DNA of 43,662 nucleotides, from contig JWZX01002781.1 in the NCBI GenBank assembly GCA_001275005.1, positions 1 through 43,662 of the forward strand. Reading direction: 5' to 3'. Both the position numbers and the translations under genes were made by a program. Numbering within the stretch: the first letter of the stretch is position 1; each line of letters starts with the position of its first letter. The DNA is from Chrysochromulina tobinii. Taxonomy: Eukaryota. Below are positions 4,775-43,662 of the stretch, piece by piece. The notes beneath the pieces are model-generated. The model saw nothing but the letters and a program-made list of their open reading frames with translations. It was not told where the DNA came from and did no database searches.

Positions 4775-7552
4775 TCCGGCCGCAGCGTGCATCCCTCCGG
4801 CAGCACTCACCGCCCCGCCGGCTGCCGCGTCCGCTGCGGCCGCCGCCTGGTCGAGTTGCATCTGGAGCTGCGGCACGTGAAGGAGCCATCAGTCGCACTC
4901 AGTCGCAATCAGTCGCACTCAGTCGCACTCAGTCGCACTCACCTGGAGCACGTGGAGGAGCACGGGAAGCAGGCGCTCCACCAGCCCAGGCATGGCCTCG
5001 AGCTGCGAGGCCATCGGCTTGATCGCATCCACCACCGCGTCACCCACAAGGGGGGATGTGCCCGAGACGGCGCCGCGCCCGAGCGAGTTGGACCAGAGCT
5101 GTAACAGCTGCGGCGTGAGCCACGGCTCCGCGGCGGCCGCCGCGTGAGCGTCGCGGCGCAGCAGACTCCCCACAGTGCGCAGGGCGCATAGCGTCGCCTC
5201 TTCGCCCTCTCGCAGCGCGAGGAGCGCCGTCGTGGGCACCAAACAGTCCAGCACGAGCGCCGTAGTGGTCGCCGCGCCCCCTGGCAGACGTTCACACCCC
5301 TCTGGAAGCTGTTCACACACCGTCTGGAGCGCGCCTGCATGGACCGCAATCAGGCGCACTCAGACGCACTCGGAGGCACCCGTCGAACGCAATCAGAGGT
5401 CATCAGAGGCCATCAGAGGTCCTCAGAGGCGATCAGTCGCAATCAGAGCCCATCAGCGCACCGCACGCGACCAGGCGCAGCTGAGTGCCCCACTGTGGCT
5501 CTAGTGCCGCGCGGATTGCTCCCACCAACTTAGCCAACGCCTCTCGCGGCAGCGAAGCCGCATAGCGCGCCGCCGCGCACAGGGTTCGTGCCCGGAGCAG
5601 CGGAGGCGTGTCGGGGTTCGTCAGATCGTGTCCCCACAGCTCCTCGAACGCATGTGCGGCGCTGAAGACGGCGGCGCGCCCGTTGGAGAGAGCCTTTTTG
5701 TTCGCCTGCGCCAAGTGGGACGCACCAAGCTCGAGTGCGAGGCAGGCAGCCTCTCGCAGCCGCCACCAGTGCGGCGCACCCGCTGTTCGGTTCGCATGCG
5801 CTTGGCTCAAGCGTGCGCCGATGGCGTGCAGGAGCGCCGTCGCGGCGCTCGCCGGGGCGGCGTCGAGCAGCTGCTCGAGCGCTTGGCGCACCTGCCATTA
5901 GGCGCAATCAGGCGTAATCAGGCGCAATCAGGCGTAATCAGGCGCAATCAGGCGCATGCAGACTCATACAGCAGCATTCATCTAGGGCGCTCGATGTCAT
6001 CAAAGGTCATCAGAGGGTCATCGTAGAATTCATCAGAGGTCTTCACGGCGCAATCCACACCAATCAGGGGAGCTGCTCACGGCCACGCGAGTGGAGACGG
6101 CGAATGACTCCGAGTCCTCATGTTGAAGGTACGCGTCCACATCTTCGCTCCACTCCTCCTCTTGTGCAGGCGTGATCGGGAGCAGCCCAATGCACCTGCA
6201 TGCAAACGCATGCCAACGCATCCTCAGACGCAATCCAGACGCAATCAGATGGGCTCAAGACGCCCTCAGACGCCCTCAGACGCCTTCAGAAGCACTCAGA
6301 CGCCCTCACAAGCACTCAGAAGCACGCAGAAGCACTCAGAAGCACTCAGATGCACATGTGGAAGAGGTCGGGCAATGCCGGCGTGAGTAGCCTGTGGAAC
6401 GTCGATGAATCCGCAAGCGCACTGAACACGTCGAGTAGCTCCGCCGCCAGAGCATCCGCGCCCTCCGTCTCTCCGTCCGAATCGTACCGCGACGGCGCGT
6501 TCCAAAGGCCCATCGCGCCGCCAGGCTCCGTCGCCTCGAGCGTGCGCTCATGCAGCCGGACGGCTCGCAGCAGCTGTGCGCCGAGCGGAGGCAATATGGC
6601 TTCCTTATTAGGCAGGAGCGCACGTGGGAGCATCTGGATGAAGAGTCGCAACAGGCGAACGAGCGCCACCTGCAGCGCGCAGCTCTCACCGTCCGCACCC
6701 TCTGCGCCCGCCACAGCGCCCGCCACGCCCGCCACGCCCGCGACGCCCGCCACGCCCGCCGGCGCGTCTGCACAGCCCGCGAGCGCCTCGAGGATGAGTG
6801 ACGCCCACACAGCCAACGGCCCCTTTTGGAGCTTGCGCAGGACCGGGTCGTCGTCGGCGCAGAGCATGGTGAGCCGTTCGAGCAGCTTATGCACCACCTG
6901 ATGAGGGGGGGGGCAGTCCGGTAGGCGCTCACGGGGGCGTTCCAAACACGCCATCAGCGCCCCTCAGTTGCGAGCACACCCGCACGGTACGCGCTCGGTC
7001 CTTGGGCCTTGCCGTTGGCGAGGCGACTACTGGGGCGAGCAGCGGCGAAAGCACATCGAGCGTCTCGATCAGCTGAGCCTGATCAAGCTCGCCGGCGCAG
7101 AGCTCGAGGCAGCGCAGGACGCCTGCGGCTGCCTCCGACGAGCCCTCGCCGCCCGCGCTCGCCGCGCTCTGGAGCCGTTGGATGAGCTCTTGCACCATCC
7201 CAGGCCACTCGTCGGGAAAGTCGTGCTGCGCAATGGCGGCCACGACCATGGAGACGGCGGTGCGGATCTTGCCGGATCGGTCGGCGAGGCACGTGGGCAG
7301 CGCGCCTCGGATCGCCGCCTTCTCTGCGTCAGGTACGATGCCTCGCATCCACTGGGAGCGCACAAGCCGCTTCAGGATCAGGCCGGATAGCTGGCGCACC
7401 GGCAAGGGCTGAGCCGAATCGACAAGGATACTCGCGAGGCAGAGCGCAAATCCGGGTGTGCCCTGCAGCGCGTCGAGCCCAGCCTCGGCCGCACGCGGAT
7501 CGAGCTGCATCTGGCCGAGGTGGTGCAACACCACCGCGTGAAGGTCAGACAT
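3232..7552 (-). CDS. IPO9: Importin-9-like karyopherin, 7 exons: 7552-6980, 6897-6356, 6195-6081, 5891-5462, 5334-4943, 4867-4073, 3963-3232 (about 1192 aa)
   Basis: IBN_N-like VRQLSGLILKRLVRSQW; AIAQHDFPDEWPGMV; EEEWSEDVDAYLQHED; WWRLREAACLAL; acidic C-terminal loop; all six GT-AG junctions keep frame (3579 nt). Confidence 0.85.
3964..4072 (-). other. Importin-9 intron 6 (109 nt, phase 0) with GAGTGCC-core decamers
   Basis: GAT|GTACGC ... CCCTCATCAG|GTG joins ETAPD to VLHPYEAK. Confidence 0.8.
4868..4942 (-). other. Importin-9 intron 5 (75 nt, phase 0), GAGTGCGACT x5; alternative in-frame acceptor at 4862
   Basis: CAG|GTGAGT ... GCCGCAG|CTC; its removal eliminates an in-frame stop. Confidence 0.8.
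5335..5461 (-). other. Importin-9 intron 4 (127 nt, phase 1) with degenerate decamer repeats
   Basis: G|GTGCGC ... CATGCAG|GC gives VACGALQTVC. Confidence 0.75.
5892..6080 (-). other. Importin-9 intron 3 (189 nt, phase 0) containing a (TGATT(G/A)CGCC)n decamer array
   Basis: GCC|GTGAGC ... CTAATGGCAG|GTG; CTAAT branch-like motif. Confidence 0.8.
6196..6355 (-). other. Importin-9 intron 2 (160 nt, phase 2), built of about 10-nt TCTGAGTGCT / TCTGAGGGCG units
   Basis: AT|GTGCAT ... GCATGCAG|GTGCATT restores LFHMCIGLL. Confidence 0.8.
6898..6979 (-). other. Importin-9 intron 1 (82 nt, phase 0)
   Basis: CGG|GTGTGC ... CCCCCTCATCAG|GTG joins ARTVR to VVHKLL. Confidence 0.75.
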
Positions 7553-8002: not shown

Positions 8003-10168
8003 TGTGGATGCGATGCTCAAATCGGCGAACATCAAGGGAGACGATACGTTTTTGGACAGCAACGCTCAGGAGCGTGAACGTGGCATTACCATTCTTGCAA
8101 AGAATGCGGCGCTCACATGGAATGGCGTCAAGGTCAACATCGTCGACACTCCTGGCCACGCCGACTTTGGCGGCGAGGTGGAGCGTGTGCTCGGCATGGT
8201 GGACGCCGTGCTGCTGCTTGTGGATGCGGCGGAGGGCCCGAAACCGCAGACGCGCTTCGTGCTCAAAAAGGCGCTTGCCATGGGCCACAAGGTGCTTGTC
8301 GTCGTTAACAAGATCGACAAGCCTGCTGCGCGTCCTGACTACGTGCTCGACAAGACCTTCGACCTCTTCTGCGAGCTGGGCGCTACGGACGAGCAGACCG
8401 ACTTCCCTGTGGTGTACACGTCGGCGATCAACAAGGTCGCTGGCCACGAACCGAATGCGATCGGCACGGACATGTCGGCCCTCTTCGACAAGATCATGAC
8501 GCTCCCGAAACCCAAGGTGGCGAACGACAAGCCTCTCCAGCTCCAGATCTCGAACATCGGCTCGGACCCGTTCATCGGGCGGCTGGGCATCGGACGCATC
8601 ACCGCGGGCAAGCTGGTCAAGAACACGCCCATCGGCCTCTCTGCGGGCCCTGGCGCGAAGGTTCGCCAGGTCAAGGTCTCCGAGCTCTTCAACTTCCAGT
8701 CGGCTGGCCGCGTGCCGATTGAGAGCGCCTCCGCGGGCGAGATTGTCGTCTTCTCGGGCGTGCCCGACTTCAACATCGGTGACACGATCGTCGACCTGGC
8801 CAACCCGATGCCACTCGAGCCCATCGAGGTCGAGCAGCCCACGATGTCGATCACTATGGGTGTGAACAAGTCTCCATTCGCGGGTCGTTCGGGTGCCAAA
8901 TACCTGACGGGGCGCAACATCCGCGATCGGCTGATGAAGGAGCTCGAGACGAACGTGGCGATGCGCGTCGAGGACACCGACGACGGCGATACGGTGCTCG
9001 TCTCTGGGCGTGGGTTGCTCCATTTGACCGTGCTGATCGAGAACATGCGGCGGGAGAGCTTCGAGCTCATGGTTGGCCCTCCGATGGTGATTGAGAAGAC
9101 CGAGAATGGCGAGCGCCTCGAGCCGTTTGAGCTGGTGGGCAGATTGAAGGCAGATTGAAGGCAGATTGAAGGCAGATTGAAGCCAGATTGAAGCCAGATT
9201 GAAGCCAGATTGAAGCCGTTTGAGCCGTTTGGTGGGCAGATTGAAGGCAGATTGAAGGCAGATTGAATGCTGCCTCGAATCTCCTCTGAGGGCCGCGGAG
9301 GGCTGCTGATGGCCACTGATGGCCGCTGAGAGTGCTGCTGTGATTGCTTCGGCAGGTGGACATCGAGCTGCCCGCGGAATACGCCTCGGCCGCGATCTCC
9401 CTGCTCAACGAGCGCAAGGGCAACATGATCGACATGACCGCGGTGACCAAGGAGGGAGGGCAGGTGAAATACTGAACGAGTTGCCCTGAGTGCCCCCTAA
9501 TTGGCCTTAATTAAATGCAATTGCCATACCTGCCTCGACTGCAGGTGATCCAATTCGAGGTGCCTGCCCGTGGCATGTCGGGCGTCAAGTCCAAGCTGCT
9601 CTCTGCGACACGCGGTCTCGCCGTGATGAGCTCCACCTTCGCGGGCTACAAGCCGTACGCGGGTGACTTCGGGCAGCGCCAGAAGGGCAATCTGCTCTCG
9701 GCCGAGGCGGGCACCGCCACCGCGTATGCGATGCACAAGCTCGAGGACCGCGGCGCCTTCTTCTCCAGCCCCGGCGATGAGGTGTACGAGAACCAGATTG
9801 TCGGCGTCAACGCCAAGTCGGGCGATCTCAAGGCAAACATCTGCAGGTGATGAGCACTGATTGCATTCGGATTGCATTCAGATTGCATTCAGATTGCATT
9901 CTGAGTGCCTCTGATTGACTCTTGAGTGGCTCTGAGTGCCTCTGAGTGCCTCTGAGTGCCTCTGAGCGTCTCGCTCATCAGGGCGAAGGCGCTGACGAAC
10001 ATGCGCTCGGCCGGCGCGGATGAAAAGTCGACCACCTCGACCCCGCTGCAACTCACTCTTGAGGATGCAGTCGAGTACGTCATCGACGGCGAGTACGTCG
10101 AGGTGACGCCCGACGCGATCCGCATGGGCATGGCGCCCAAGATGAACAAGTTTGGCCAGAAGGTGTGA
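7818..10168 (+). CDS. typA: TypA/BipA translational GTPase, probably plastid-targeted; exons 7818-9134, 9356-9463, 9545-9846, 9982-10168 (about 637 aa)
   Basis: [81 protein letters not shown]; hydrophobic leader followed by a transit-like segment; junctions keep frame (1914 nt). Confidence 0.95.
9135..9355 (+). other. TypA intron 1 (221 nt, phase 0) with an 11-nt (G/C)CAGATTGAAG array
   Basis: CTG|GTGGGC ... TTCGGCAG|GTG joins LEPFEL to VDIELP. Confidence 0.85.
9464..9544 (+). other. TypA intron 2 (81 nt, phase 0)
   Basis: CAG|GTGAAA ... CTAAT ... CTGCAG|GTG. Confidence 0.85.
9847..9981 (+). other. TypA intron 3 (135 nt, phase 2) with GATTGCATTC(A/G) and CTGAGTGCCT arrays
   Basis: AG|GTGATG ... 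GCTCATCAG|G gives [12 protein letters not shown]. Confidence 0.85.
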
Positions 10169-24531: not shown

Positions 24532-26156
24532 ATGCCGTCCCTTGCCACGCGTGTCCTAGGTGAAATGTTGTCGCCTATGCGGAGCCTGAGCTTCCGCCGG
24601 CGAGGCGACAACATCCCGCAGCGCTCAGCGTGCTCGCCAGCGTGTGGCAGCACGCAGAACTGCACCGCTACTGCAGCGTCGCGTTCACCCGCGACACCAG
24701 CCGCCGCCAGCAGCAGCGTTGAGCGCTGGTCGAGCCCAGAGTCGGTCTCGACGCGGCCGCGACGCTTCGATGCTGCAAACAAAGCCCCCGTGCAGGAGCG
24801 CAGCACGCGCGTGTACCAAGAGCGACGGCTGGTGCGCACGGATGACTTAAAGGCCGCCGACTTGAGTCTTTGGCTCCAGCACTGCCGACGTGAGAATGGT
24901 CTGCATAAAGAGCACCTCGAGGCCATCTCGAGACGTATGTATCGAGATGGGCTAGCTCGCAAAGGCGACACCCTGAACGCTGCCGACATGGGTAGTTGGT
25001 TCGAGCACATCCAACGAGAGAACCGTCTGCATAAGGAGCATCTCGAAGCGATCTCGAGACGCATGCATCGAGATGGCCTCATGACCCGCTCCGAGCTGGA
25101 GCGTTGGCTCGAGGGCCCCGAAGAGAATCTGGCGGTGCTCAGCCCCGCGGCTCGCAGTCTGCTCAAGCAACGGCAAGCAGCTACCTCGCCGCACGAGCGG
25201 AGATCACGGGCAGATTCCCCGCCCGAGATGAGAAGAGAGGAGACCACTGAGGAGACCACAGGCGCTGTATTGGGCACTTCCTCGTCCGAGATGAGAAGAG
25301 AGGAGACCGCAGGCGCAGCATCGCCAGGATCATCCTCATCCGCACCACAGCGGCTGCTGCCAGCTGAGTCGCGGCCGTGGCACAATCGTGCCCGCGAGGG
25401 GCTGCGAGATTGTAGAGATCGGACGCACTTGCTGTCGCCACCGATACCAATGCCGCAGCTGCAACTCGGCCAATCGCCCTTGGCATTACCTCCGCCGGCG
25501 CGGCTGCCGCGTCCCCGTGCCGACATCCACTCTCCCGTCACTCCCGCTCCCTTCCACAGCCCCGCTCCTTTCGACCACGACACGGACCAGCACACCAGAG
25601 AGGAGGCCGAGCAAGAGAGATCCTTCTTGCGCGCGCGGCCGCTCGAGGGCGGCGCACTCGTTGCGGCGCGCGTGCGCCTCGGCATCGTCCTCAGACGTCC
25701 ACCGCCCTCGGGCCTCGGCCATGCATTCAAACAGGCGCTCGAACGCGCCGTGGCCGAGGAGCTGAGCGCTCGCGTGCTGCATGCACAGGCTTGTGCAGAC
25801 CAGGACGATGGCACAGATGCGGAGCAGGAGGCTGATAGCCGCGGCACGACAGCCCGCAGCAGCTCAAGCAGCAGCTCCAGCAGCAGCGCCGTACGTGGCG
25901 CGCGCAACCCTCCAAACGTGATCGTGCGCATGAGTGCAAGCGAAGCGCCTGTGCGAGTGCCGACCTTGCACGTGCCCAAGTTGGCCCCCTCGCCCCCCGT
26001 GGCCCCATCGTCGCCGTCCTCTCCGCCGTCCTCTCCGCCGTCCTCTCCGCCGTCCTCTCCGCCGCCAACAGACGAGGAGGCGGAAAGCGCTCACGAGGCC
26101 TCGAGCGGTGTGGCAGCCCAGCAGTACAACAGCGCATGCGGCAGCGGCAGCGGCAG

Positions 26157-26202
<46 letters not shown>

Positions 26203-29200
26203 AGCGGCGCCGACGCACCCGCCACGGCCATCGCCACGTGGCTCGACGTGTGCATCGAAATCGTCGTGGACGCGTCATGCTGGGCGTGGGGATCGGTGCG
26301 ACATCTGGAGGACGAGATGATCGAGCTCGCATCTCCCGCGAGGACGGGAGATTGGTGGCACGCGGCGCTTCACCGGTGCGCCAGTCAAGAGTGCGAGCTG
26401 CACGTTCTGAAGCTCGAGGCACTCCGAAGATTTCGATCCGCGGAAGACGTCGCTGCGGCGCTGCAGGGGATGCAGTCGCGCAGCACGCTGCCGCCGCTCA
26501 CGCTGCCCCTGGCGCTGCCGTCCCCCTCGCCTTCCTCGGTTCCATGGCTGTCGGAGCTACGGACCGCCGTCGATCGTGCAGAGCAGGCCGTGAATGGGGC
26601 CGTGAACGCTCTGGACGGTTGGTTGAGCATCAAGAATGAGGAGGAGGATGCCACGATGAGACTGCTAGAGGAAGGCGACGGCAGTGGTAACCTCTCGCCG
26701 CCCAGAACGCTCATTCGTGTTACTGCCATCGCCCCTGCTGCTGCCGCCCCTGCTGCTGCCGCCCCTGCTGCTTCCGCCCCTGCTGCCGCCCCTGCTGCAG
26801 CCGCCGCCTCGTCGTCCAGCTCCGCAGCCATACACACCAGGGCCACTCTTACGCGCAACTCGGCCGGCCGTTTCGGCGTCTCCTTTCACTCTCCCGGCGA
26901 CGGCACCATTCGGCTCGAACACATCTCAGACGCGCACGACGTGGACGATGAGCGAAAGCTGCTGTGCGTGGGCGACATCGTGCTCTCGATTAACGGGATC
27001 CCGCTCGAGACACCTCGCGAGTCCAAGACAGAGAGCGAGGAGGCGTTTCTCCTCCTGATCGCCCATTCAGGCCAGCACGTGGTGCTACACGTGTGTCGCC
27101 CGAGTGCGACGGTCCCGCGGGAGCTCTCACGGGCCTCCACCGCCATTCCCCTCAAGCTTTGGCGTGGTGCGGCGGATGGTACAGATGATGACGTTGTGGC
27201 TGAAGCCGCCTCAGCTTCCTCTTCCTCAGCCCCTTCGACCGCCGCTGCAACGCTCGAGCCACGAGCGTCGTCGTGGGCGCGCGACTCGCTCACCGTGCGC
27301 GTGCTCGTGGGGGAGCTCTCTACGCGTGTTGAGAGGACTCAGACGTATCACACGCGTCTTCTGGAGCAGCTGGCTCAGTTGTCGTTGATGCTGCAGCTCG
27401 AGCGGCGGGAACGCGAGCTGCTCGAGCTGCTCGAGCGGCGTGAATCCATGGCGGAGCATCGGCACGAGCAGGCGCAGCCGCACACGGCGAGGGACACCCT
27501 GGCGGCGTGGTGCAACGCATGTAGCGACAGCTGGCGCGATCGGCAGCACCTGTGGTTCGCGCGGGCATATGGGAGGGTTCTGCTCGAGACGACGCTCTGG
27601 CGGACGATGTTGGAGGTGAGGTGGGCCATGTTGAAGCTGCAACTGACGCACGCGAGCCTCGAGTGCAATGCAGCCGCCTCAGCTGCCTATGCAGCCACCT
27701 TTGGCCGTGCCGTCGAGGCCATGGGAACCGGCGTCACCTCGAGTGCGAGCTCGATCGGGCGCTGTATCGAGCATATCGCCCACTCGGCCGCCAACGGCTG
27801 CCACATGTATCTCGCCAATGAGCTCGAGCGGCTGGAGCAGCTCGAGACGACGCGGCCGGAGCAGCTCACAGCGGACTCGAGCGCTGGAGCCAGCACAGTT
27901 TGGCGTCAACGTGCGCGCTTCGACCTCCGGGCGGCTGCGACTCGGCGCAAGCTCGATCGGATGCGGTGGTGGGTGCGCTGGCTGCTGCTGCTGCTGCTAC
28001 GAAGTGTGCAGCTGCTGCTCCTTTGCGTTCGTTGCTTGCTCGCCCTACTCTCGCCCCGCGCCTTGATGATTGAGATGCTCATCATCATGGGCTTCGTCGC
28101 CTCGTCGCCTACTACACTGGGGGTCCTGGGCGCAGGGCAGCAGGGCGTCCGAGCAGACGGGCAGGGTTTCCAGAGTGTCGGCCAAAACGTCGGCCACGGC
28201 ATTCAGCAAAGCGTCCAAACTGTCGGCCAGGGCCTGCACACGGTCAGCGGCGCAGTGGGACAGGGGTTTGGGGCGCTCGGTGCACTTGTGAGCAATGCGG
28301 CGGCCGTCTACGTCTTGCAAATTAGCCCGCCTCCGACGCCTTCCCCATTACCATCTTCTTCACCCCTCTCGCCCCGGCTGACCCTGCCGCCGCCGCAGGC
28401 GCCACCTCCGCCACCTTACCCGTCACCGACACATCTGTCTCATTTGAAGCCCTCACCACCCATGCACCCAGCACTTCTGGCAGTTGCCTGGCATACGGTG
28501 GACAGTCTGGGCCTACATAAGGGTCTTACGACCTCATCACCGCCGCCCCTTCCGTTGCCGCCCTCGAAGCCTCCCCTTCAATCTTCGCCACCACCTGCTC
28601 GGTCTTCGCGGCCACCATCCCTAATGCCGCTGCCGCTGCCGCTGCCGCCACGACCGCCGCATTCGCCCTCGCCGCCGCCGCCGTCCCCTTCTGCTGAATC
28701 ATCTCCCCCTCCTTCCTCACCGCCACCGCACCCGCCATCACCCTCGCCGCCGCCACCCTCGCCGCCGCCGCCACCCTCGCCGCCTCCCAGGCCGCCGCCG
28801 CCCTCGCCCTCACCCTCGCCGCCCTATCGGCGTCATACTCCAGTCTTCGAGATTGAAGGGCCCATCAAGCTCGATGGCCACAGTTGCCTTTATCAGGAGA
28901 AGGGCACGCATGCGGCGTTACCTCTCGGACGCACGCCGTATACCATCGAGGCCTGGATACGACCCGCCGCCTCGGGCAATCCGTACGGAGGCATTGTGGG
29001 CTGGGGCGAGTACGGCATCCTGCATGGCGCCAACGCTCTCCGGATGGACGGATACCATTCGGTGGCTTCTTATTACTGGGGCGACGACCTGCACGTGTAC
29101 CCCCACAGTGACGCATTGATCAACCTCATCGACGGCGAATGGCACCACGTCGCCACCACCTTCGACGGTGCGTGGCGGCAGCTCTTTATAGACTTCAAGC

Positions 29201-32200
29201 TTGTTGGCACCAAGGCGTCCGCCGGCCCTACGGAACTTATCTCCAAGGAGAATTTCTGCATCGGGCGCACCTCCACTTCCGAATTCTTCCACGGGGCCAT
29301 CCGCGGCGTGCGCATCTACGACGAGCTCATCGTGCTCATGGCGAACGAATTCTCGCCCTCGCCGCCGCCGCCGCCTCTTCCTCCGTCGTGGCACCGGTTC
29401 TTTGGCACCCATCCGCGAGCGCCACCTCCGCCACCCCACCCATCGCCGCCTCCGCCACCTTCGCCACCTCTACCATCCCCCCCTCCACCGTCACCTCCGC
29501 CGCCGACCCTTCCGCCGCCGTCACCACCACCACCATCGCCTCCACCTCCATCGCCCCCGTTGCCCCTGCCTCCGCATGCGCCACCTCCGCCACCTTACCC
29601 GTCGCCACCACATCCTTCCCCTTTGCCGCCCTCGCCGCCCATGCACCCAGCACTCCTGGCAGTTGCCTGGCATACGGTGGACGCTGGTCTGGGCCTTGCT
29701 TCACTTGCGGCCCTCATCAAGCTGGTGACGGCAGTTGCGTCGGGTCTGATCGCCGCGTGCACGCTCTTGCTCGCGTTCTATGTCTTACTCGGGGCCTTGT
29801 ATGAAAGTGCCTTGTGGCTGTGCGAGCAAATACAATCGTGGCTGCCACAGCCCTCGGACAACGAGTCGCACGAGCTGCTGGTCGAGGACAAGGAGATGGA
29901 CGGCAACAGACTGGCCGACGTGTCCCTGCTGGCCATGGAGCTCAACGCTCATGACGACAGCGTCGAGGTAGAGTCGCCAAAGCGGGGCTTCCTGCCACGG
30001 GCTGAGCTCGAGAGTCCGTCACGGAGATGGGGACTGACAGAGGAACCACCGCTCCGCTCGCCGCTCCCGGCGACCCTCTCTGCTGACGTGCCCTTCGGGC
30101 TGCTGAAGCCAGTTGCGCACCGCCCTTCATACGTGTCGTATGCAGCCACAGGGGAGATCGTGGCGCCGACACTGGCACAGCTGTCTCGATTACCGCCACC
30201 ACCGCCAGCAACGCCGGAGCCGGTCGTGATCGATCCATGGCTAACCGCGACAGACGAGGCCACTGGCGACACATACTACTACAGGGAGTACAGTGGGGAG
30301 TCGCAGTGGGAACCGCCGTGGCGCTTGCCACTAGGGCTCGTCGTGCTCGCATTTGGCGCAACTGAGGAAGGCGAGCTGAGCGTGGCTGTGGGCATGCAGG
30401 TGACGGTACTTGCCGCGGAGGACGATTGGCTCTATGTGGAAGATCAAGGGCGGCGCGAGGGCATGGTCCCGGCTGCATGCGTGCGCCTGCTGCCAGATGG
30501 TGCTGCCGAGCCATCGCCGACGATTGAGCGCACTCGTCTGGCACTGCCCAATTTTGCTGGGTACACCGCTGACGAAACGAGGCGTGAGGCGCCGCCCTTC
30601 GCACAGCTCCGCCTCCTGCGCGAGTCCTTGGACGCTGCCTTAAGCCCCTCGGGGTTGGACGACACAACAGCAGGGCTCGCTCCGGAGCCTTCGGACGGAG
30701 CTGACTTCGAAACGGGCGGACGGGGGCGCAGCGCACAGAAGCCGCCCACGGTGTACATCACGGAGCCGGAGATGGAGCCGGTGCTGATGCAGACGCCTCA
30801 GCCGGAGCCCACCCCGGAGCAGCACGAGCCGACGCCGGAGCTAAAGCCGGAACCGTCTGCAACGGCTGCTTCCCCGGCCACCCATCCGTCTCAGGATATG
30901 TCTCAGGAGGAGGCTCCGATTCCGTCAGCACCTTCATCAGCCCCGGCTTCCCAGTATATGTCTCAGGAGGCTTCGATTCCGTCAGCACCTTCATCAGCCC
31001 CGGCACCTGCATCAGCCCCGGCTGTCGCCGTCGAGCCGATAACGATCGTGCGCACGAGGCCCTTGGTGCCTCCTCTCGTGATCCCTGCCGTACAGGCAGC
31101 TAAGGCAAAGGCTGCGCAGGAGGATGCAGCCGCAGCGGCGAGCGCGCTGGGGGAGGCGGAGCTGGCCGCTTCGGACGCTGCCGAGGTGGCGGCGGCTGAA
31201 GCGCAGGCGGTGGCGTTGGCGGACGGCGAGGGTAGCATGGCTCATTGGGCGGCCGTTACGATGGCCAACACGGCCGGTGCCGTGCATGCGAGCCTTTTGG
31301 GATGGTTCCATTCCATCCAATCGATGGCGACGCCGCCACCGCTACCGCCAGCTGGATGGGAACGTCTGCCAGACGAGGAGGGGGGCGTCGTGTTGGGCGT
31401 CGAGCATGCTCGGGCTGCTGGGTCTGTCGGGTCTGCTGGGTCTGCTGGGTCTGCTGGGTCTGCTGGGTCTGCTGGGGCAGATCGGCCGTCTGACAATCCC
31501 TACGCCGTGCTCTATTGGTGTGAGGGCAGGCCGTTACCGCGTCCCAGCACCCACCTTCTTGCCCGCTGCCGCGGCGTCGCTCACACTCGCGCCCAGGGGG
31601 CTGAGGCAGCCAATGTACACGCGCCCACGTCGGGCGGAGTTGCGAGGAGCCCACCGAAGATGGTTCCGAAGGTGAAGACGATCGCCATCTCGCCTCGCAG
31701 CGCCGGCAGCGGCGGTGGCGAGTGCTTCAACGCAGCGCGTGCTAGGCTGCAAGCTCCGCGCCGAGGCAGCTCCGCGACCCTGATCAACGCGACGCCGAGA
31801 GCAGCCACGGCACGTGAGCACATGTTCGAATTCAAGCCGCCGCCTCCGGTGCCGATGGTGCAGTCGGCACGCCCATCGTTGAACCCGGCCACCGAGCGCA
31901 CGCTGCAACGCCGGGACTCACTCCGACGCCTGTCCGCCTTGCAGCCGGTGAGCCGTCTCGGCGGCCATTGGAAGGCTCGTCCCCGCGACGTGCCCTCATC
32001 CGCCCTCTCTACCCCACGCGTTGCCCCTCCCCCCGGCTCGACCCCTCGGGACGACGCTCGGTACGACGCTCGGTCCGGCTCTACCTCGCACCGAGCCAGC
32101 CTCTCGCCTGCTCCCAGCCAAAGCCTCTCGCCACCCACGGCACCCTCCGAGGAGATGGACGTGGGAGCAGCGAGCCCTGCTCAGGTTGGGTTGGACGCCA

Positions 32201-32991
32201 GAGGTCAGACGAGTAGCCATCGCGCGGGATGCGTGGGTGCTAGAGATGAGACGTCGAGCCTCGGCAAGGGGATCGAGTTGGGCAGAGCCGAACCTGGCAG
32301 GCGAGAGGAGCCAAGCGGCCTGGACTCCCCGCGCGCTGATTGGTCGATACGCACCCCACCGACCGAACGCTCTCTCCTCTCCCCTCCCGACCGAACTGGT
32401 CCTCCCCTCACGCAAACGGGCATGGAGCCATCGCCCAGACTCGAGCTCCTCAGCGAGGAGCCATCCCAAGAGTGTGGAACTGACAAACCTTCGCCGATGG
32501 AGCCATCGCCCAGATTCGAGCTCCTCATCGAGGAGCCATCCCAAGAGTGTGGAACTGACAAACCTTCGCCGATGGAGCCATCGCCCAGATTCGAGCTCCT
32601 CATCGAGGAGCCATCCCAAGAGTGTGGAACTGACGAACCTTCGCCGACCCTATCATCGACCCATTCGCCGAACCTATCGCCAAATCTATCGCCGACCCTG
32701 TCACGGGCGAAACCATTCGCTTCATTGCGGCCCAAGTCTCCCTTCACACCTCCACGGCGTGAACGGCGTGAGGTAGTGCCACCATTCCAAGCACCATTCA
32801 TGGAGGTCCATCCGCTGGCATTGCCGAATCACGCTCGGGACGACGCGCCCGATGACGTGGAGAATGCACGAGGCGCGTGGCGGCAGAGGAGAATGCACGA
32901 GGCGAGAGCGCAATTTGCTGCGAAGCAGAAGGCGCGAGCAACAGCAGCAGGCCAAGGCTCTAGGCGCGACGAGGCGTTTCTGAACGCATGA
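24532..32991 (+). CDS. Giant intronless multidomain membrane protein: PDZ, TM, Pro-rich, LamG/concanavalin-like, Pro-rich, TM, WW, SH3
   Basis: About 2820 uninterrupted codons; PDZ about 26839-27102 (GRFGVSF...VGDIVLSINGIPL); LamG about 28843-29340 (YTIEAWIRP...DGEWHHVATTFDG...FFHGAIRGVRIYD); WW about 30229-30318; SH3 about 30334-30492. Confidence 0.85.
32422..32646 (+). repeat. In-frame 75-bp tandem repeat x3 (MEPSPRxELLxEEPSQECGTDxPSP)
   Basis: Near-identical DNA units. Confidence 0.9.
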
Positions 32992-41486: not shown

Positions 41487-43662
41487 TCACTCAAACTGGA
41501 CGCGCGCGTGCAGATGCCGCGCCGCGGCGGCGTCGCCCGGGCGCGCGCCAACGTACCGATGCGCGTACACCATGCGCGGGTGCTGCCGGCGCACGGCGAC
41601 AGCCTGCCCCCCGCCCGCGCCCGTGAGCCGGCGCGGCAGCCAGCGAAGCTCGGGCATCGTATGGTTGGCGGCCGTCGGCTCCCAGAGCGGCGACGCGTCC
41701 CGGTAGGCTCCAAAGCGCGGGTGGACTGTCTGGCCGTAAAAGTCGGAGCCGCGCCGCTTGAGCCACTCGCCCACCGCGTCGCTCAGCCTCGCGCCCACGC
41801 CGAAGCCCTGGAACTCGGGCAGCACGACTGTGCGGTGCGCGCGCTGTGGCCGATCGGTCGCCTCGCTCGTCGGCTTGCCTGAGTGAGGGATGGTCGCCAA
41901 TCAAAGAGGCAATCAATGGTCATCAGCGACGCTCGCAACGGCTTGCCTGAGTGAGGGATGGTCGCCACGAACCCCGCGGGCACGTACACGCTCGCCTCGT
42001 CCTCCGCGTCGTGGCGAGCGTCCTCCGCGTCGCGAGCCACCGCCTCGGCGTCGTGGTGAGCGTCCTCCGCGTCCGCCGCCGCGGTTCCCGCCCGTGTCAC
42101 CGCCGCCTCCGCCCTCCCGCCGAGCGCCACGCGCGCCTCGAGCAGGCAGGTCGATGCGACCGTTGAGAGCTGCGCCGTCTTGTAGTGGTAGCTGTGGAAG
42201 CGCTGCCACTCGGCGGGTGCGCATGGGCGTAGCCGCAGGGCGAGCTGTGGAAAGGGGAGGCGCACGCTGCCGCCGTCGACGAGGCCGGTGGCGCCGGTGC
42301 TGGCGCCGGCGGCGGAGGGTTTGGCGGCGAGAGGGTCGCTGATGACCTTTGATTGCCTCTCGATTGCCTCTTGATTGCCTTTGTTGTCGTCGGAGGGATT
42401 GGCGGCGAGTGACGCTCGCGCGGCCGCCAGCGCTAGCCAACCACGCAAGCCCATCGCCTCGTGAGCCATCGCCTCGTGAGCCGTCGCCTCGTGAGCCGTC
42501 GCCTCGTCCATCGCCTCGTCCATCGCCTCGTGAGCCGTCGCGCCCGCTGCCGCGCCCGCTGCCGCCTTCTCCACGTCCCTCGTCGCCTCCGCCTCGGTTT
42601 CGGCGCCCTCCGCCTCAGCGCCCTCCGCCCGTGTAGCTGCCGTCGGCTGGAGCCAGAAGCACGTGGCCGAGCCCGCCTCAAAGATCCAATCGGGCTCGAG
42701 GGCACCGCGCGCCACGTGCTCAATGTGGCAGCCCGCGAGCACCACCCCGGCGCATCGCAGCAGCGACGGCCGCGCAGCCGCCCCACCAGCGCCCACGACG
42801 GCGCCGCCGGAGCCGCCGGGCTGAGCTTGAGCGGTCGAGGCCCGCAGCGCGCCGCTGAGCGCGCGGCTGATGCGCAGCGTCGTGTCGCCATCCCACGCGG
42901 AGCCAAACTCGTCAAAGAGGGCGAGCCGCGCGCCTGATCGCTCGTCGTCCCCCGCCTCGTCCCCGTCCCCTTTGGCCGGCTCGGCCGCGCCGATCTCCAA
43001 GGCCAGCAGCGCCTGGGCACGCTCGCCGCTCGAGCACGCGCCGTACCGCCACGCGAGCGCCGACGGCAGCGGCGCGGCCACCGCACGCAGGCAGCGCGCC
43101 GCTTGCTCGGAGCTGCCAAAGGCGTCGCTCAGTCGGCGAGCGCGCCGCCAGGCGGCGCTCAAGACGGCGCTCCCGTCGAGGGCGGCTCGACCGAATTGGG
43201 CAGCGAGCAGTGCGGACTTGGCCGCGCCCGACGGGCCGGTCAGCACACCAAGGCGGAAGGGGCCGAGCGCGTCGCGGCTCGGGAAGGGCGGCAGCCGGCG
43301 CGCGCAGGTGCCGTCGCTCGGCAGGTCGAAGAAGGTCTCGACGATGCGCGTCGCCTCGGTCGCCTCGACGTGCGCCGCGAGCACGCGCCCGCCCCGCGGC
43401 GGCGGCGCGCACGCGTCGTGCTGAGCGGGAGGCGTGACGTCGTGGCAGAGGGCATCAGAGACCATCAAAGGCACTCAGGGGTACTACTCAGAAGTCATCA
43501 GTGCTCATCACCTGGAAGGGAGGCGCGTCGTCGTAGCAGCGCTGGGAGAGCACCCGTAGGCCACACCGGCGGAGGCTCGCGAGGAAGAGCTCGCCGCCGC
43601 GGGGGAGGTGCGATGGGGGGAGGTGCGATGGGGGGAGGTGCGATGGCGGGAGGTGCGATGGG
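41487..43662 (-). CDS. ABC-type ATPase fused to a GNAT acetyltransferase, 5' end outside the window; exons >43662-43512, 43420-41947, 41878-41487
   Basis: Walker A-like LTGPSGAAKS, signature-like SSGE, Walker B LFDEFGS, H-loop LAGCH...LEPDWIF; WQRFHSYHY; acetyl-CoA motif RTVVLPEFQGFGVG...TVHP. Confidence 0.8.
41879..41946 (-). other. GC-AG intron (68 nt, phase 1) bounded by a perfect 29-bp direct repeat
   Basis: CAG|GCAAGC ... CCCTCACTCAG|GCAAGC; removal joins the 41783-43474 and 41487-41900 ORFs. Confidence 0.8.
43421..43511 (-). other. GT-AG intron (91 nt, phase 0) in the ABC-GNAT gene
   Basis: CAG|GTGATGAGCACTGAT ... CCCGCTCAG|CAC; upstream frame stays open to the window edge. Confidence 0.7.
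43602..43662 (-). repeat. 15-bp tandem repeat (PSHLP x4), probably coding
   Basis: GGGAGGTGCGATGG(G/C) units on the plus strand. Confidence 0.8.

Follow-up and report, generated by a model that had tools for sequence, protein, structure and literature searches.

A predicted GC-AG intron of satellite filler between 29-bp duplications, amplified in tandem, in Chrysochromulina tobinii

In the account given in PMC4974935, most new introns have no traceable source, and cases born by duplication are few. In the Rogers model an intron is gained by tandem duplication of a proto-splice site, and the vertebrate gene ATP2A1 is the case described by Hellsten et al. 2011 (PMC3265369). Zhu and Niu 2013 describe two fission-yeast introns built of 24-nt units that bear AGGC (PMC3629103). 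In Daphnia, neointrons are attributed by Li et al. 2014 to the repair of staggered double-strand breaks, with direct repeats of 4-12 bp (PMC4202315). Introners make duplications of 3-9 bp, and a family with 4-bp duplications is reported from Chrysochromulina sp. (Gozashti et al. 2022, PMC9860276). Introner class 14 of Polarella glacialis takes both splice sites from a 4-nt duplication (bioRxiv 10.1101/2020.10.14.339549). Insertions of non-LTR and Penelope-like elements are described with target duplications of variable length, short truncated inserts and simple-repeat links (PMC9977147, PMC8557442); the word haptophyte is absent from PMC8557442. About one intron per gene is given in PMC4580454, in passages that are silent on intron repeats. 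In the literature searched, no account of long-duplication satellite introns in haptophytes was found; subscription papers and supplements, including introner catalogues, may hold some.

The locus considered here lies in a stretch of 43,662 nucleotides from Chrysochromulina tobinii (contig JWZX01002781.1), called the window. In the reading that we prefer, and regard as probable rather than firm, satellite filler came to lie between 29-base target duplications, the resulting unit multiplied to about ten copies in one lineage, and splicing likely removes the array in full as a GC-AG intron. The host gene is on the minus strand and has three predicted exons, each of them open. The first exon comprises 454 open codons in the metagenome contig L002 (L002:6348-7710), and its 3' end is at 43512..43662, running on past the window edge. 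The middle exon (41947..43420) encodes a second P-loop-like region, a low-complexity linker and the start of a GNAT-like domain. The last exon (41487..41878) encodes the C-terminal part of this domain and is open until its stop. The P-loop and GNAT matches of the C. tobinii gene are weak and lie under the Pfam cut-offs, as does the GNAT match of the homologue P0003, which covers the insert site; another homologue, P0008, has an AAA_16 match above the cut-off. Three short proteins (P0189, P0192, and P0193) carry an 85-92% identical piece of the GNAT exon amid unrelated sequence, possibly a captured gene fragment.

In the window, two exact 29-mers are found at 41871-41899 and 41939-41967 with 39 nt between them, and none of 100 shuffles of the window gave two matches, even allowing 3 mismatches. 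On the minus strand, the 5' copy (41939..41967) consists of 21 nt of exon end followed by the predicted GC donor, with the first intron base at 41946. It is followed by 39 nt of satellite filler (41900..41938) of the genome's intron-type repeat family, which has CTGAT and two TTGAT words resembling branch points. The 3' copy (41871..41899) provides a pyrimidine-rich run, the predicted AG acceptor with the last intron base at 41879, and then 8 nt of exon. The order is thus exon sequence ending in CCCTCACTCAG, then gcaagccg, the 39 nt and tggcgaccatccctcactcag, then exon sequence starting with GCAAGCCG. Read by eye with no trained model, the sites are those of a U2-type GC-AG intron: CAG/gcaagc, ccctcactcag/, and CTGAT or TTGAT. 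The initial annotation had noted the perfect repeat, the presence of CAG/GCAAG in both copies on the minus strand, so that the first gives the predicted donor and the second the acceptor, and the restored frame; all three stand. Removal of 68 nt (41946-41879) brings the upstream frame (P0002) into line with the conserved GNAT frame downstream (P0001). The insert had also been taken as made by duplication. This holds for the splice sites, which come from duplicated coding bases, but not as a plain exon duplication, since foreign satellite filler makes up 39 of the 68 bases.

In the window, one 68-nt unit of the predicted intron (41879..41946, minus strand) stands for a collapsed array of about 9-11 units, which is common to several haplotypes. 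Among metagenome contigs, eight loci were found, four of which (L001-L004) match the last exon fully; the others (L005-L008) were left out, with 33-57% identity and no repeat. L002 has 11 head-to-tail 68-bp units in 748 nt (L002:9254-10001) and four units are assembled in L004, while L001 (at least five units) and L003 (part of two) break off within the array. In the DNA run X1, 41871-41967 forms a separate contig of 97 nt at a depth of 779.9 against 79.8 and 77.4 in its flanks, a ratio of 9.9. In the DNA run X9 the same 97-nt piece has a depth of 451 against 51.7 and 46, a ratio of 9.2. The units of L002 and L004 and both depth ratios speak against the claim of a single 68-nt insert with only two 29-mers. 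The contigs adjoining the 97-nt piece end at 41900 and start at 41938 in both runs, implying that the insert-free junction is uncommon there, as far as contigs, which drop rare variants, can tell. X1, X9, and L001-L004 may share their source material with the window. Separate support for at least two units comes from the RNA run X13, which has a joint jumping back 68, and from P0167, P0168, and P0234, whose translation continues into the second unit. Units vary at position 51 (A/T, within the filler, at 41917 of the window) and at position 27 (C/T, within the 29-mer), where T changes the internal donor to GCAAGT. With head-to-tail units in the range of 10-100 bp (11 x 68 bp) and two variant positions, the array is a minisatellite. 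Assembled unit number is 1, 4, or 11 between assemblies, and collapse may explain these differences.

Outside the GNAT gene the haplotypes differ. Below 39904 the window no longer follows any of the four matching loci, and the break is preceded by 9-13 substitutions within an adjacent transporter-like gene. L002 (6115) and L004 (6577) also diverge upstream of the GNAT gene; divergence on both sides represents either structural haplotypes or misjoins. L002:12590-15030, in a stretch not shared with the window, has an ankyrin-repeat-like open frame with a RING-like end motif, as judged by eye. Elsewhere in the window, 24532-32991 on the plus strand is an intron-less open frame of 2819 codons that is rich in proline repeats and includes a 75-nt tandem repeat at 32422-32647.

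Based on its splice sites and reading frames, the array is likely a new GC-AG intron. With no unit retained, the frame is open to the conserved stop, and with one to six units retained it stops early. One retained unit shifts the frame, two or more units lead to a stop within the second unit, and any retention truncates the GNAT domain. Therefore, an intact GNAT domain requires complete removal of the array. Since every unit boundary is AG/GC, splicing would need either a direct joint between the outermost sites, first donor and last acceptor, or excision of the units one step at a time. Against a GC donor, GT is the start of each of the 12 further candidate introns that were delimited by eye. 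In another haptophyte, Emiliania huxleyi, 56-65% of the checked donors are reported to be GC, and retention is reported in 89% of 535 introns (PMC4028052).

The spliced joint is absent from all six RNA runs, all of which were examined as contigs. Unspliced contigs cross the acceptor in X12 (41536-41951) and in the poly(A) run X15 (41605-41904), and X13 and X14 contain array unit sequence. These results would be expected if the insertion were a gene-breaking mutation, the insert and its array being unspliced or poorly spliced and the allele being a null allele of a dispensable gene. The ten competing AG/GC junctions, of which full removal alone is productive, point in the same direction. However, the older 91-nt intron of the same gene, which must be spliced and is common to both lineages, is also retained in X12, X13, and X14. 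These contigs thus show retention or DNA and do not refute splicing. A null allele is also disfavoured by the last exon, which is intact in every listed haplotype with two of the three variants in insert-bearing RNA contigs silent, and by the protein P0175, which reads through. On balance we regard a broken gene as unlikely and productive splicing of the array as quite probable. In RNA runs X16 and X17 the junction is not usefully covered. A joint in X15 between 41802 and 43136 was ignored because its 21-base sides come from another locus.

Judged by comparison within this genome, the focal event is one of a class of satellite-block duplications. Another event of the same build is found in the same gene at 42310..42409 (plus strand). 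It is older, and has antisense satellite filler between 19-22-nt repeats at a spacing of 78 nt; the filler is in frame and translated. This event is found in alleles with and without the focal insert, and at 29 of 30 bases its filler is the complement of the focal filler in its T variant. The older predicted GT-AG intron (43421..43511, minus strand) is 91 nt long, the same as its repeat spacing. Its tail is a decayed 22-nt copy of the upstream exon end with 3 mismatches; for this tail P0003 has CYDVAPPSQ, and the exon end itself encodes CYDDAPPFQ.

A census was made over 66 kb, consisting of the window and the non-overlapping parts of L002 and L004, with motifs and a threshold that were chosen after the sequence had been read. 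Flanking direct repeats scoring at least 24 are found at 10 of the 22 satellite blocks, compared with 2.0% in a control of crossed pairs and 5.0% in a control of random positions. The positives are clustered, eight of the ten being in two genes: five in a CRAL-TRIO-like gene and three in the focal gene, with one in a GTPase gene and one a satellite against satellite. At the nine sites measured, the duplications are 14-38 nt long with 0-3 mismatches. At four sites the repeat spacing equals the predicted intron length (68, 91, 75, and 88). A second full copy of the 39-nt filler was not found in the 66 kb, while its motifs are shared.

Several other junctions in this sequence carry duplications. 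The CRAL-TRIO-like gene, a weak Pfam match at L002:1380-2930, has five satellite blocks with near-perfect flanking repeats of 24-38 nt. At L002:2113-2274 and 2359-2594, several duplications of exon end and exon start are stacked at one junction. L002:3570-3680 has a 36-nt direct repeat beside a minus-strand satellite block, probably another junction duplication. In the window, a predicted 75-nt intron at 4868-4942 (minus strand) ends in a decayed copy of the upstream exon end at a spacing of 75; its gene we take from its appearance to be importin-like. In the first intron of the GTPase gene (9121-9267, plus strand), the exon end and donor region recur about 97 nt downstream, within an 11-nt satellite. 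Named relatives of this gene include Haptolina and Prymnesium proteins, and one member of the cluster around its 100% identical match bears the name Chrysochromulina tobinii. The predicted introns at 9847 (plus) and 43511 (minus), in different genes, have identical first 15 bases, GTGATGAGCACTGAT, as expected of one insert family.

The origin of the focal insert can be proposed in three steps. First, two nicks 29 bases apart would have been repaired with satellite filler copied between them, most likely by a retrotransposition-like process; the related events point to such a process, as their duplications differ in size (14-38 nt), their fillers are of unequal length and both orientations are found. 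No enzyme or autonomous element, tail, or promoter for the insertion was identified. Second, the target would have contained CCCTCACTCAG/GCAAG by chance, so that the first copy became a GC donor and the last an acceptor like the usual ones of the species, with the filler supplying the branch point. Third, units flanked by repeats can amplify through slippage or unequal exchange, and the unit may have been amplified in either way. Orientation and frame would decide the outcome: sense filler with usable sites would become an intron, while antisense filler would survive if in frame.

A different source of the filler is a template switch during repair, by which it would have been copied in cis; the template would be the antisense satellite block that lies about 400 bases upstream within this gene. 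This block is the best filler match in the 66 kb, with 29 of 30 bases for the T variant and a score of 55 against 41 for the next. However, the search was limited to these 66 kb of the genome, and the first four and last five bases of the filler are outside the match. Moreover, the motif is present in high copy, the depth summed over its bin in X1 being 7238 compared with about 77, and an X16 contig that otherwise lies elsewhere matches 41896-41926 exactly (31 bases). We regard a local template as improbable, more so than a broken gene, and prefer retrotransposition-like insertion from the dispersed satellite family. Pairing between the filler and the antisense exon block was rejected as evidence: at -63 to -68 kcal/mol it is not better than the best of 200 other gene windows (-67.8). 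The 29-mer and the acceptor motif have no match in viral contigs. A search for the acceptor motif in species genomes gave five bacterial matches, by estimate about the number due to chance for 19 bases, and was set aside.

If the same route is general, the genome would house an ongoing intron factory, in which satellite filler is placed with target duplications of 15-40 bases. Its focal product, absent in sister alleles, would have been amplified into about ten AG/GC junctions with zero exon between them, cleared in one jump or unit by unit. This generalization is tentative and we hold it to be rather doubtful.

The distribution of the insert supports a lineage-restricted gain at an intron-free site, as far as protein and contig comparisons indicate. 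The protein homologue search returned 29 proteins among 895 candidates. P0003 and P0004, with 98% identity to the last exon, have no interruption at the insert site. Of the 43 cluster members 15 are listed, and among these P0040-P0044 likewise read through. All seven start in the tail of the upstream intron and are thus derived from unspliced sequence. The 39-nt filler is absent at the insert site in these alleles, which are known at the protein level only, not as DNA. They share linked markers (e.g., SVIKVNQ and GARAEAAPTRLG), and the six proteins whose translation includes the filler have different ones. This pattern favours two lineages over random collapse. All 27 distant homologues (42-82% identity) cross the site in one frame, several of them on contigs longer than 5 kb, and 12 of the 27 have the motif [IT]PHSG; note that this list is biased to intron-free forms because gene calls break at introns. 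A comparison of orthologues, which had been proposed as a check, thus agrees with the gain at the protein level: 7 near-identical and 27 distant proteins are without an intron at the site. P0175 has the markers of the insert lineage on both sides and unrelated sequence at its ends; it may represent spliced RNA, an empty allele, or collapse. P0171 was considered as an allele broken near the site and rejected, as its cluster mate P0235 reads through.

The initial annotation had dated the gain as very recent from zero divergence between the copies. The gain holds, but the dating does not. Zero divergence is true of the first and last copy only, and since the units differ at two positions (27 and 51) it fails as a clock. 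In addition, the insert-bearing haplotypes vary among themselves at 41646, 41740, and 41841, implying that the insert is older than zero divergence would suggest. It arose after the sister haplotype had split off. Two variants (P0233 and P0039) lie in the intronic portion of the last copy; they would agree with relaxed constraint, and their number is too small to count.

It might be argued instead that a short intron was already present at this site and was duplicated across its junction, the read-through alleles being intron losses or spliced transcripts. The duplications stacked at L002:2359-2594 show that junction duplications at existing introns occur, and the read-through alleles are seen as proteins, not DNA. 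However, an older intron is very unlikely: every one of the 27 distant homologues reads through, the read-through alleles keep the upstream intron tail, and the repeat spacing equals the unit length exactly. Most improbable of all is that the window is literal, with one 68-nt intron and the arrays elsewhere being assembly artefacts; P0165 and P0233 do translate as a single unit (real or collapsed) and L002 and L004 differ in assembled unit number, but against it stand the depth ratios, close to 10 in both DNA runs, the contigs broken at either end of the unit, the ordered patterns of unit variants, and the 68-nt back-joint in RNA. Other haplotypes may have single-unit alleles, though the material matching the window does not.

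In one species complex, alleles with and without the insert can be compared with each other, with earlier, decayed events of the same gene, and with an insertion that lies in the opposite orientation and in frame. If the array is spliced, it would represent a route from a long target duplication to an intron that grows by amplification of its unit. It would also be a natural test of how the spliceosome chooses among ten identical AG/GC junctions. Short-read assemblies collapse such introns and give them a falsely newborn look.

Compared with the known systems, the locus agrees with each in part. As in gain of the Rogers type, a duplicated coding AG/GY yields both splice sites and removal leaves the peptide unchanged; unlike it, each 68-base unit includes 39 bases of foreign filler, so that duplicated sequence is not the only component. 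A tandem array is shared with the fission-yeast introns as described in PMC3629103. Unlike in the Rogers-type and fission-yeast cases, close relatives here still have insert-free alleles, and the genome contains further events of this kind. Daphnia neointrons, in the description of PMC4202315, are likewise polymorphic for presence and absence, in that case among populations. They also have a direct repeat common to the intron end and the adjacent exon, and later repeats arise inside young introns. However, the repeat here is 29 bp (14-38 in sibling events) against 4-12 bp in Daphnia, and the filler here has a recognisable source family. Like introners as published, a repeated sequence makes introns, takes splice sites from the target duplication, and is found in either orientation. 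Unlike introners, the duplications are 29 nt and variable (14-38 nt) rather than fixed at 3-9 bp, filler lengths differ, and the unit is amplified in tandem. Terminal inverted repeats, reported in many introner families but not all, were not found here: of 36 inverted pairs, the 25 longest include none at the ends of the insert. Replitrons were considered and rejected, as the short terminal repeats of their own described in PMC10288648 are not seen in the focal insert. Variable duplication length, both orientations, short truncated inserts and ties to simple repeats are shared with the products of non-LTR and Penelope-like elements; with autonomous element, tail, and promoter not identified here, this is a resemblance only. 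The combination of a long target duplication, satellite filler, and growth by units is best read as a variant of duplication-derived intron gain.
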